Under the pieces are notes generated by a model. It had not been told where the DNA came from. It worked only from the letters and a program-made list of their open reading frames with translations, and searched no databases. From an uncultured Acidobacterium sp. (GTDB lineage: Bacteria > Acidobacteriota > Vicinamibacteria > Vicinamibacterales > UBA2999), in contig CAZVLS010000001.1 of assembly GCA_964628295.1 (NCBI GenBank), positions 10,250 through 74,249 on the forward strand: DNA of 64,000 nucleotides, given 5' to 3'. This document shows, piece by piece, positions 48,221-50,161 of the stretch (its first letter is position 1; each line of letters opens with the position of its first letter). The translations under genes and the position numbers were made by a program.

Positions 48221-50161
48221 TTACTTGTTCGGTTTCAAAAGCAGAAATCCCAAAGGTGGGACGGTCAGGCTGAGCGAAAACGGGTGCCCGTGCGCGGGGA
48301 CGTCCTCGGCCGGGACCTTCCCCTGGTTGCCCATGTTGCTGCCGCCGTAGACCGCTGCATCGCTGTTCAGGATCTCTTCGTAGTCGCCATCGAGCGGCAC
48401 GCCAAGTCGATAGCCGCGACGAGGCACCGGCGTGAAGTTGACGACGGCCACGACGAGTTCAGAGTTGAGAGTGGAGAGTGCAGAGTGATCCCCGGCTACC
48501 CCCTCTGCACTCTGCACTCCTGACTCTGCACTCTTGCGCGCCAGCGCCACGATGCTGTGCTCATGGTCATTGCAGTCAATCCAGGTGAACCCTGCGGGGT
48601 CAAAATCGTCAGTCCACAAAGTGGACTCTCGTTGATACACGACGTTCAGGTCCCGGACCCAGCGTTGCAGACCGGCATGGCGCGGGTCGCCGAGCACTTC
48701 CCAATCCAGCTGCCAGTCGTGGTTCCACTCGCGCCACTGGCCGATCTCGCCACCCATGAACAACAGCTTCTTGCCGGGATGCACGAACATGTAACCGTAG
48801 AGCGCGCGCAGGTTTGCGTGCTTCTGCCACACGTCGCCAGGCATCTTGTCGAGCATCGACCGCTTGCCGTGCACCACTTCGTCGTGCGAGAACGGCAGCA
48901 CGAACTTCTCGCTGTAGGCGTACATCATCGAGAACGTGATCTTGTTGTGGTGCCACTTGCGATGGATCGGGTTCTCCTTGGTGTAGTCGAGCATGTCGTG
49001 CATCCAGCCCATGTTCCACTTGTAGGTGAAACCCAGGCCGCCAAGGTGCACGGGCCGCGTCACGCCAGGCCATGAGGTCGACTCCTCGGCGGACACGAAG
49101 GCGCCGGGACACTCCTTCTCGACCAGCATGTTCAGCTGCTTGATGAATTCGATCGCATCGAGATTCTCGCGGCCGCCGTACTTGTTCGGGATCCACTGCC
49201 CCGCATCGCGCGAGTAATCCAGATACAGCATCGACGCGACGGCGTCGACGCGCAGGCCGTCGAGATGAAATTCCGTCAGCCAGAAGCGCGCGTTGCTCAG
49301 CAGAAACGAGCGCACTTCGTGACGCCCGTAGTTGAAAACGAGCGTGCCCCAGTCCTGGTGTTCGCCTTGCCGCGGATCGGCGTGCTCGTAGAGCGCGGTG
49401 CCGTCGAATCGCGCCAGGCCGTGTTGATCCTTCGGAAAATGACCGGGCACCCAGTCGAGGATCACGCCGATGCCGGCCTGGTGAAAGGCATCGACCAGGA
49501 ACTTGAAGTCTTCGGGCGTGCCGAACCGGCTCGTCGGCGCGAAGAAGCCGATCACCTGGTAGCCCCACGAGCCGGTGTAGGGATGCTCCATCACCGGCAG
49601 CAACTCGACGTGCGTGAAGCCCATGTCCTTCACGTAGGGGACCAGGCGCTCCGCCATGTCGCGATAGGTGTGGAGCTTGCCGTCAGGCGAACGCTGCCAG
49701 CTTCCCAGGTGCACCTCGTACACCGACATTGGCTGCTGCTTCCACTGCCCGCGTCCTTCGCGGGCGCGCATCCACTCGTCGTCCTGCCACGCGTAGGCGC
49801 TGCTGTCCCACACGATCGACGCGGTCTTCGGTGGCGTCTCGAAATAGCGCGCGCATGGATCGGCCTTCAACACGCGACTGCCGTCGGCGCCGAACACTTC
49901 GAACTTATAGGTGGCTCCGGTCGTGAGCCCAGAGACAAACGCTTCCCAGTAGCCGGAGTTTTGAAGCTGGCGCATCGGGTGCCTCGCGCCGTTCCACTGG
50001 TTGAAGTCGCCGACAAGATTGATCGACCGGGCATTGGGCGCCCAGACCGCGAACGCCACCCCGCTCACGCCCTCGTGCTCGGTGACTCGGGCCCCGAGCT
50101 TGTTGAACGCCTCGAAGTGCGTTCCTTCGCCGAGCAGGTGCAGATCGAATGCGGTTAGCAC
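48221..50161 (-). CDS. glgB: 1,4-alpha-glucan branching enzyme
   Basis: GH13 motifs DWVPGHF, GLRVDAVASM, SAEESTS and FSHDEVVHGK. C-terminus NFTPVPR...SLSLTVPPLG. Confidence 0.95.
   Translation of the reverse strand: MLTAFDLHLLGEGTHFEAFNKLGARVTEHEGVSGVAFAVWAPNARSINLVGDFNQWNGARHPMRQLQNSGYWEAFVSGLTTGATYKFEVFGADGSRVLKADPCARYFETPPKTASIVWDSSAYAWQDDEWMRAREGRGQWKQQPMSVYEVHLGSWQRSPDGKLHTYRDMAERLVPYVKDMGFTHVELLPVMEHPYTGSWGYQVIGFFAPTSRFGTPEDFKFLVDAFHQAGIGVILDWVPGHFPKDQHGLARFDGTALYEHADPRQGEHQDWGTLVFNYGRHEVRSFLLSNARFWLTEFHLDGLRVDAVASMLYLDYSRDAGQWIPNKYGGRENLDAIEFIKQLNMLVEKECPGAFVSAEESTSWPGVTRPVHLGGLGFTYKWNMGWMHDMLDYTKENPIHRKWHHNKITFSMMYAYSEKFVLPFSHDEVVHGKRSMLDKMPGDVWQKHANLRALYGYMFVHPGKKLLFMGGEIGQWREWNHDWQLDWEVLGDPRHAGLQRWVRDLNVVYQRESTLWTDDFDPAGFTWIDCNDHEHSIVALARKSAESGVQSAEGVAGDHSALSTLNSELVVAVVNFTPVPRRGYRLGVPLDGDYEEILNSDAAVYGGSNMGNQGKVPAEDVPAHGHPFSLSLTVPPLGFLLLKPNK
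48457..48538. repeat. inverted heptamer arrays (GTGCAGA / TCTGCAC) embedded in frame in glgB
   Basis: gttcaga gttgaga gtggaga gtgcaga gtg - atccccggctaccccc - tctgcac tctgcac tcctgac tctgcac. Translates as SAESGVQSAEGVAGDHSALSTLNS. Confidence 0.85.

Follow-up and report, generated by a model that had tools for sequence, protein, structure and literature searches.

How does a palindrome built from tandem 7-nt units come to be translated as part of a conserved enzyme? This question is raised by the gene of the 1,4-alpha-glucan branching enzyme (glgB) in a 64,000-nt stretch of an uncultured Acidobacterium sp. (contig CAZVLS010000001.1), hereafter referred to as the window. An earlier reading of the letters alone (the original prediction) had placed a two-arm heptamer hairpin inside this gene and considered the repeats either mobile or generated in situ. 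In our analysis, the segment is best explained, with a probability of about 0.55, as a long simple sequence repeat (SSR) array of 7-nt units in two inverted arms, which was produced and remodelled locally and filtered for reading frame at a permissive loop, rather than as a discrete mobile element.

A two-arm heptamer hairpin lies in frame within glgB

The glgB hairpin spans positions 48455-48534 and is composed of two complementary arms of ~4.6 heptamer units each, GAGTGCA-like in one arm and TGCACTC-like in the other, around a 15-nt loop. On the plus strand, the left arm (48455-48487) reads GAGTTCA, GAGTTGA, GAGTGGA, GAGTGCA and GAGTG, the loop (48488-48502) reads ATCCCCGGCTACCCC, and the right arm (48503-48534) reads CTCTGCA, CTCTGCA, CTCCTGA, CTCTGCA and CTCT. 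Tandem Repeats Finder (TRF) detects period 7 in both arms, with 3.6-3.9 copies on the left and 4.6 copies on the right. With 3.9 and 4.6 copies, both arms exceed the three head-to-tail short units beyond chance that define a long SSR. The 116-nt stretch around the hairpin folds at -58.8 kcal/mol as mRNA-strand RNA (z = -4.05) and at -29.2 kcal/mol as DNA (z = -4.7), and none of 200 dinucleotide shuffles matches either energy. The predicted fold is a single long stem with interruptions. Direct reading, the TRF arrays and the fold thus bear out the two-arm hairpin that had been proposed within the open reading frame (ORF). The claim that the frame is kept through it also holds, because the translated ORF of 646 codons is continuous. 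The net insertion of 57 nt equals, arithmetically, six heptamers and the 15-nt loop.

The host gene shows the domain composition of its class, a CBM48, a GH13 catalytic domain and a C-terminal all-β domain (Pfam CBM_48, 1.6e-22; Alpha-amylase, 1.2e-19; Alpha-amylase_C, 4.9e-21). The PDB entries 5gqw, 1m7x and 3k1d all match with E values from 1e-218 to 1e-233, and the Cyanothece GlgB (5gqw) aligns end to end with residues 2-643 (E = 4e-233). The catalytic-site motifs GLRVDAVASM, AEEST and SHDEVVHGK are unchanged across both protein alignments. The ORF has no internal stops and no frameshifts, it aligns with orthologues over its full length, and relatives share its surroundings in the order amidase / glgB / histidine kinase / LytTR regulator / 119-aa gene. 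Because the motifs are invariant and the gene order is conserved, the product looks like a functional branching enzyme and not like that of a decaying pseudogene. No sign of decay accompanies the full-length alignment and the intact motifs, and the possibility, raised with the original prediction, that the gene is disrupted can be set aside. In the species-representative set, the best GlgB match is only 64-66%.

The insert occupies a loop of domain C

Nineteen residues (GVQSAEGVAGDHSALSTLN, 548-566) are missing from 13 of 13 orthologues at 59-66% identity, which include Acidobacteriota metagenome-assembled genomes (MAGs), Azospirillum and Pseudomonas. The alignment with Cyanothece 5gqw has an 18-residue gap at the same site, between ..SFLRRSDDP and NDSLVVVCNFTP. 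The proposed insertion therefore stands, and its size does not: instead of ~24 residues (~72 nt), it comprises 19 residues (57 nt) relative to the array-less orthologues and 18 relative to 5gqw. The outermost repeat units coincide with codons aligned to native residues, R-K-S-A-E on one side and S-E-L on the other.

The insertion site is the β-hairpin loop of domain C, between ..SIVALAR and ELVVAVVNFTP. Both the orthologue alignment and the 5gqw alignment agree with the earlier assignment just ahead of the conserved VVNFTPVPR strand, where the insert is tolerated as a loop. An AlphaFold2 model made from 30 close orthologues was poor (mean predicted local distance difference test score, pLDDT, 46.8) and is usable for the C-terminal domain only. 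In this domain, residues 547-565 have pLDDT <50 and are flanked by confident strands (537-543 and 569-575). The 19-residue insert probably forms a disordered, S/A/G-rich surface loop. The glgB hairpin thus presents what is typical of Rickettsia palindromic elements (RPEs), an in-frame palindromic insertion at a tolerated loop of a conserved protein. The native codons of RRSAE (AGA AGT GCG GAG) were considered as a seed of the heptamers. The resemblance is suggestive at most, and array-less orthologues contain no consistent proto-repeat.

The loop is remodelled among close orthologues

A set of 120 closer orthologues (72-89% identity; the best-matching named ones are labelled Vicinamibacterales) was compared with the GlgB of the window. 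Across these 121 sequences, internal indels occur mainly in the loop that follows residue 547, where 61 sequences have extra residues, up to 47 of them. Outgroup GlgBs are nearly all of the short form at this loop, such as RRAADPADFTVAVV. All 121 retrieved sequences are in frame, with the proviso that truncated, frameshifted alleles might rank too low in a protein search to be listed.

The loop DNA was compared in nine orthologues (L081-L086 and L207-L209). L081, whose protein is P0004, carries a GAGTGCA-type two-arm hairpin at the same codon position as the window, with ~10 units per arm and a predicted fold of -92.5 kcal/mol (z = -7). One-arm arrays are found in L084 and L085 ((A/G)GAGTGC or AGAGTTC), L208 (GCGAGTG), L207 (GGAACCG), and L209 and L086 (the octamer CAGGCCAT, x5 and x17, respectively). 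L082 and L083 are array-free and have a short segment, possibly a deletion remnant. Outside the loop, the orthologous genes are 85-86.5% identical to the window gene at the nucleotide level. L207 and L208 are 90% identical outside the loop, yet their repeat units differ, and the two carriers of the GAGTGCA hairpin, the window and L081, are not mutual closest relatives. Such differing content among genes that are 85-90% identical implies that the loop turns over far faster than the rest of the gene. The insertion is lineage-specific: distant orthologues lack it, and close ones carry other arrays or none. The alternative raised with the original prediction, a homologous loop without repeats shared by close orthologues, was not found.

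The length difference between the window and L081 is exactly 84 nt, which corresponds to 12 heptamers or 4 x 21 nt. The arms of L081 are composed of 21-nt super-units that encode ELRVQSA x3, which is the pattern expected if only frame-preserving slippage survives. Copy number thus varies in whole units between relatives, as in other long SSRs, by 12 units in this pair.

A second, smaller indel hot spot was observed after residue 158 (window ~49685-49690), in a loop where the Cyanothece GlgB has a 22-residue insert. About ten orthologues carry an 8-residue insert, PFDSAQGK, at this site, which is doubled in P0054 and present as variants in P0080 and P0118.

An upstream hairpin records concerted change of both arms

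A two-arm octamer hairpin occupies the intergenic region between the divergent amidase and glgB genes (Table 1). It lies in the promoter region and is not a terminator. The same hairpin, with homologous flanks, is present in L208 (1858-1949) and L209 (10003-10110), and the loops of the three genomes are homologous (CAAGACTG / CAAGTTTG / CAAGATAG). L082 retains the right arm alone, and neither L207 nor L084 has the hairpin. The two arms of each hairpin agree in their unit variant, which is CCAT in L209 and CTAG in the window and L208. A joint change of both arms around a homologous loop and between homologous flanks shows in-situ concerted evolution, and the hairpin offers direct support for such evolution of two-arm arrays.

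Table 1. Coordinates of the glgB gene, the parts of its hairpin and the hairpins compared with it
Feature	Position in window	Strand	Description
glgB (1,4-alpha-glucan branching enzyme)	48221..50161	minus	646 aa, GTG start, intact ORF
5' arm on mRNA	48503..48534	minus	(A)GAGTGC-type units x4.6; encodes ..KSAESGVQSAE; TRF and folds
Hairpin loop on mRNA	48488..48502	minus	GGGGUAGCCGGGGAU; 15 nt, encodes ~GVAGD; unpaired in folds
3' arm on mRNA	48455..48487	minus	CACTCTG/CACTCTC/AACTCTG units x4.7; encodes HSALSTLNSEL; TRF and folds
Net insertion relative to array-less orthologues	48464..48520	minus	57 nt = 19 codons, residues 548-566; protein alignment
Two-arm octamer hairpin	50162..50245		CAGGCTAG-type units, loop CAAGACTG; divergent amidase-glgB intergenic region; TRF
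Intergenic comparator, two-arm heptamer hairpin	29886..29951		AGTAGCA/CTTGCTA units; begins 1 nt past stop codon

The window belongs to an array-rich lineage

Arrays of period 7-10 number 24 in the window, whereas 30 first-order Markov simulations gave 2.1 on average and never more than 5. For arrays of at least 3.9 copies, the window has 13 and the simulations 0.07. Per 10 kb, there are 3.75 arrays in the window, 2.95 in eight loci from close relatives, 1.63 in eleven loci from other Acidobacteriota and 0.45 in 69 glgB loci from other phyla. The approximately ten-fold excess of 7-10-nt arrays is a property of this Vicinamibacterales-like Acidobacteriota lineage. A shared AGT/CAGT core of the heptamers, as in the short tandemly repeated repetitive (STRR) sequences of cyanobacteria, was rejected, as the units are diverse in 770 kb of glgB loci (ACCGAAG, CCATGGC, ACCCCGG and others).

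Many of the arrays are paired with a complementary one and form hairpins that begin within a few bases of a stop codon, at 29886, 33924, 51950, 21698, 24411 and 11385. The first of these was named in the original prediction as an intergenic counterpart of the glgB hairpin, and TRF and the fold (-32.2 kcal/mol) confirm the same two-arm heptamer architecture. Its unit contains TAG, so that this hairpin could not be read in frame. At 33924-34035, immediately past the stop of a 1005-aa ORF, the two arms are composed of 9/10-nt units with unequal copy numbers (AGGGTTATAA-like x3.7 and AACCCTTGT x6.4). The hairpin at 51950-52073 (-75.6 kcal/mol) lies between convergent genes, and its outer arms (ACACGAAGG x3 and CTTCGTGTC x3) enclose a separate inner stem-loop. 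Two homologous composite palindromes of ~255 nt (21698-21952 and 24411-24665) are ~75-80% alike, lie in inverse orientation and both begin immediately past a stop codon. Their outer arms are 9-mer arrays (CCACGGATTA CACGGATTG ..), which surround a large inner palindrome (GATGAGxCCGGAATCxCAAGCC...) and CTCTGTGC units. These two look like a truly dispersed repeat family similar to transposable elements of the miniature inverted-repeat type (MITEs) or bacterial interspersed mosaic elements (BIMEs).

Other arrays follow particular unit families. An octamer family (CAGGCTAG-like) occupies promoter-side and 3' intergenic regions of the window. Intergenic arrays of a C[AG]GGC[CT]A[GA]-like octamer family are located at 8549-8607, 9044-9075, 15428-15488 and 19230-19282, with further sites at 28597-28629, 38283-38328, 41638-41690 and 45040-45075. 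Inverted arrays of this second family stand on both sides of a small gene (minus strand, ~8610-8955) whose product resembles a secreted protein, and its octamers are also the commonest glgB-loop insert in orthologues (RPTGEQAN, QAIRPSGH). A CGGGAGC/CGGGAAC heptamer array lies at the very start (5' end) of a MacB/FtsX-like ORF in the window (37911-37940); units of this family also make up the array in the glgB loop of L207 (6634-6663) and an array between genes in L209 (6698-6731). The histidine-kinase gene next to glgB (46872-48080) has a short 9-mer array at the gene junction on either side, CATCTGCGC x2.9 at 46844-46869 towards the LytTR regulator and CAGAAAGCA x2.4 at 48135-48156 towards glgB. 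Downstream of glgB in the Acidobacteriota MAG L005, TRF detects very long octamer arrays, with the consensus GGTGCCAG over 108 nt (4891-4998, ~13 copies) and GCACCCTG over 166 nt (5693-5858, ~20 copies).

Within coding sequences of the window, a GGGATCA-like heptamer array (x4.6) at 14710-14741 encodes GSGSGDQGSGD in the PG_binding_1 domain of an L,D-transpeptidase (13852-15447, minus strand). It causes no net length change in the Pfam alignment and is either a repeat due to chance or an array that has replaced the native codons. Three further arrays (11491, 28597 and 19247) were rejected as inserts, since they lie upstream of likely true starts or in a spurious ORF. With these excluded, glgB is the only clear in-frame insertion in the 64 kb. 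The phenomenon reaches further than the letters of the window alone could show, since hairpins of the same heptamer also lie in frame in unrelated proteins of other organisms.

GAGTGCA hairpins occur in unrelated metagenome proteins

The 17-mer GAGTGCAGAGTGCAGAG was found in at least 120 metagenome contigs, with a G+C content of 0.33-0.71 among the matches listed. A complementary array lies within 200 nt at 23 of the 80 retained loci. The loops of these 23 two-arm hairpins are mutually unrelated, as are those of the window and L081, and no T-run follows any of the 23.

Several hairpins are read in frame in hosts confirmed by Pfam, including a DEAD-box helicase, in which the insert lies inside the DEAD domain, a SAM-dependent methyltransferase and a PD-(D/E)XK nuclease. 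A BcrAD_BadFG-type ATPase (L145, contig Ga0082212_10013390) contains two separate in-frame two-arm heptamer hairpins, at residues ~348-385 and ~437-465 (KRRVQSAECRVQSGEECGIKHSELCSLNSEL and VQSSKFKVQSEGCREQHFELCSLHSEL). A one-arm array within the DALR domain of an arginyl-tRNA synthetase leaves the length unchanged. In L115 (contig ERZ795054 NODE-3280), a histidine-kinase gene switches frame inside a 6-unit GAGTGCA-type array at ~760-860, so that HisKA and HATPase_c are in different frames. The change may stem from a frameshift, from an error in sequencing or from an allele that is off phase.

Searching with a synthetic signature peptide, (VQSAECR)n...(SALCTLH)n, brought up nothing but ORF calls of <90 aa over arrays. 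At least five such short array-derived "hypothetical proteins" come from one Planctomycetaceae MAG and one from an Armatimonadetes MAG. The search returned none of the real host proteins and so gives no count of affected families. The peptide VQSAECR / SALCTLH follows from the 7-nt unit itself.

Proposed local repeat turnover and its alternatives

We propose that the lineage generates 7-10-nt arrays at an unusually high rate and that replication slippage adds or removes units within an arm. A second, inverted arm would be created, and kept roughly complementary, via intrastrand template switching or inter-arm conversion. Inside a gene, an array would survive three filters. Its total length would have to be a multiple of three, which for whole 7-nt units gives steps of 21 nt (7 aa); its units would have to be free of stop codons in all frames; and its position would have to be structurally permissive. 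The β-hairpin loop of domain C is permissive in this sense, so that arrays accumulate there repeatedly. The outcome would be a full-length branching enzyme with a 19-residue loop, and the mRNA hairpin would most likely be a near-neutral by-product. As between the two origins first proposed, the lack of a second copy in the 64 kb, the unrelated loops and the expansion in 21-nt blocks favour generation in situ over mobility.

The two-arm arrays of the loop are free of stop codons on both strands. In the one-arm CAGGCCAT and AGTTCAG arrays, the opposite strand contains stop codons that a second arm could not read past, which explains why they stay one-armed. The arrays thus obey the stop-codon filter, but as an explanation of which units enter genes it was rejected for its weakness.

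Several observations weigh against local turnover. Approximately 70% of random heptamers pass the stop-codon filter on both strands at 64% G+C, which makes it a weak filter. Slippage alone yields no inverted arm, and the template switch is a step that we infer. The units GAGTGCA, GGAACCG and CAGGCCAT, which occupy one codon position in near relatives, could hardly have arisen from one another through point mutations, a hint that they were imported or replaced. The loop unit CAGGCCAT recurs in intergenic arrays of L209 (11726 and 18626), and the CGGGAAC family is present both at 37911 in the window and in the L207 glgB loop; this sharing is compatible with copying between loci. Finally, the GAGTGCA hairpin occurs in contigs of widely differing G+C content and in MAGs labelled Planctomycetaceae and Armatimonadetes, and random local birth does not readily predict such a spread across phyla.

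Some of these observations lend weight to a non-autonomous foldback or MITE-type element with tandem-unit inverted ends, which was inserted, or copied in from another array by ectopic conversion, and survived in frame in the permissive loop. This account is unlikely on the evidence assembled here. It would explain why the glgB hairpin has the architecture of the intergenic hairpins of the window and why unit types are common to the loop and to intergenic arrays, and a truly dispersed composite palindrome, whose ends resemble arrays, occurs in the window as two homologous copies (21698-21952 and 24411-24665). GAGTGCA hairpins are present in many contigs, some of them in frame within unrelated genes for a helicase, a methyltransferase, a nuclease and an ATPase, and at five or more loci of one Planctomycetaceae MAG, and the differing units at one site in close relatives resemble repeated arrivals. 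However, no second GAGTGCA array exists in the 64-kb window or in the 13-kb L081 locus, and a conserved core is lacking among the loops of the 23 metagenome hairpins, the window and L081. No target-site duplication is visible at the glgB hairpin, where the comparison is with the nearest array-free allele, L082, which has diverged by 14% and could itself be what a deletion left behind. The outer units merge into codons aligned with native residues, several orthologues are one-armed, and size changes in unit or 21-nt steps. No transposase-like gene was seen nearby, although no search was aimed at such genes.

A bolder proposal is that two-arm hairpins of 7-9-nt arrays constitute an undescribed class of self-propagating or templated DNA, either equivalent in prokaryotes to foldback elements or written as arrays by a unit-specific enzyme or template, that would spread within and between genomes of Acidobacteriota, Planctomycetota and Armatimonadota. 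We regard this as quite unlikely. If true, it would be considerably more interesting, as the hairpins would repeatedly land in frame in housekeeping proteins, write a VQSAECR...SALCTLH peptide hairpin and act as a general generator of new protein loops.

Selection for a function of the array, as a phase-variation (contingency) locus, as an mRNA structure for translation or decay, or as a surface loop of domain C, seems improbable. The unit is not a multiple of three, as in contingency loci, so that slippage by a single unit would shift the frame, and a frame switch does occur within an array of this kind in the L115 histidine-kinase gene. As mRNA, the hairpin of the window is stable and that of L081 very stable, and the arm-arm covariation of the upstream octamer hairpin could reflect selection for pairing. 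This reading is weakened because nothing at the loop is conserved, neither hairpin nor peptide: orthologues are one-armed, carry other units or have nothing. All 121 retrieved orthologues are in frame, within the limits of the protein search given above, and 4-5 units per arm imply a low expected slippage rate. A scan of both strands at the glgB hairpin found no terminator-like or promoter signal, and the sole Rfam match, mir-939 (30 bits against a gathering score of 84), is a generic hairpin resemblance.

Amplification or assembly errors can create inverted repeats, and the exact GlgB protein of the window is absent from the public protein collection that was looked up; nevertheless, a chimeric artefact is barely credible because L081, a metagenome contig assembled independently, shows this heptamer hairpin at an identical codon position and many further independent assemblies have arrays at this loop, and a decaying pseudogene, grouped with it, is at odds with the full-length ORF, the conserved motifs and the conserved synteny.

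Comparison with known systems

With the glgB hairpin, there is a specific case, open to comparison, in which tandem arrays of non-triplet units (7 and 8 nt), palindromes among them, are read as protein, at a loop of a conserved enzyme that has been rewritten several times among genomes 10-15% diverged. The rate of protein insertions from repeat-generating mutation and the filter that selection applies to them (frame, stop codons and structural permissiveness) are now measurable. The comparison also flags Vicinamibacterales-like Acidobacteriota for their approximately ten-fold array excess and the array-armed hairpins at gene ends. In practice, gene calling turns such arrays into small hypothetical genes; the arrays also make protein length look more diverse than it is, and they can lead to frameshift calls, as in L115. 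A literature search found no description of array-armed hairpins that are read through in frame, or of such array richness in Acidobacteriota.

Long SSRs with units of 5-11 nt include the cyanobacterial STRR heptamers, GGGAATC of Xanthomonas and TAACTGA of Beggiatoaceae. According to Mrazek, Guo and Shah (2007), as cited in PMC4679880 and PMC4692102, heptamers are the most frequent long SSRs of many bacteria, and slippage of the polymerase has been put forward, with which the slippage proposed here agrees. Inverted heptamer arrangements have been noted in Xanthomonas (PMC4692102), and occasional inverted and intragenic cases have been reported (PMC4692102, PMC4679880). The arrays studied here share with long SSRs the head-to-tail 7-nt units, the strong lineage-specific over-representation, the mainly intergenic location near gene ends, and differences in copy number and unit sequence between close relatives. 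In contrast to the known cases, the glgB array is a two-arm hairpin translated in frame within a conserved enzyme, and the units of the window are diverse, without one dominant motif per genome.

RPEs are described, in the summary that PMC10969869 gives of Ogata et al. (2000, 2002), as families of ~100-150-bp elements with a conserved consensus and encoded peptide. These palindromes sit in frame in unrelated housekeeping genes, and the peptide is predicted to be compatible with the fold and function of the host, according to the same summary (PMC10969869). The GAGTGCA hairpins resemble RPEs as in-frame palindromic DNA in unrelated housekeeping genes, where the extra peptide is tolerated. They differ in that they share only the 7-nt unit, while the loops are unrelated and arm length varies by units; moreover, the GlgB loop holds differing arrays in orthologues, and no consensus family is formed.

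Repetitive extragenic palindromic (REP) sequences, BIMEs and MITEs are short hairpin-forming repeats that are abundant in intergenic DNA downstream of genes (PMC2817692, PMC10969869). The short hairpin-forming repeats of the window are likewise intergenic and located just downstream of genes. Unlike REP and BIME sequences, the glgB hairpin is intragenic and its heptamer-array stems lack the GTAG/CGTC head. Unlike REP sequences and MITEs, it has no conserved stem sequence, no visible target-site duplication and no multi-copy consensus.

In Borg elements, rapidly evolving tandem repeats that arise locally reportedly create low-complexity, disordered protein regions, and the repeat units within ORFs are said to be divisible by three and direct only. 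The glgB-loop arrays similarly add a low-complexity, probably disordered segment. They differ in that their units are 7 or 8 nt, which gives a peptide period of 7 or 8 aa per three units, and in that the array can be a palindrome. Eukaryotic foldback transposons have long inverted arms of tandem short repeats around a variable central loop, are much longer and are demonstrably mobile. The glgB hairpin also has arms of tandem short units around a variable loop; unlike these transposons, it is short and prokaryotic and shows no evidence of mobility. Overall, the glgB hairpin behaves as a long SSR, and in the way it adds to a protein it behaves like an RPE.

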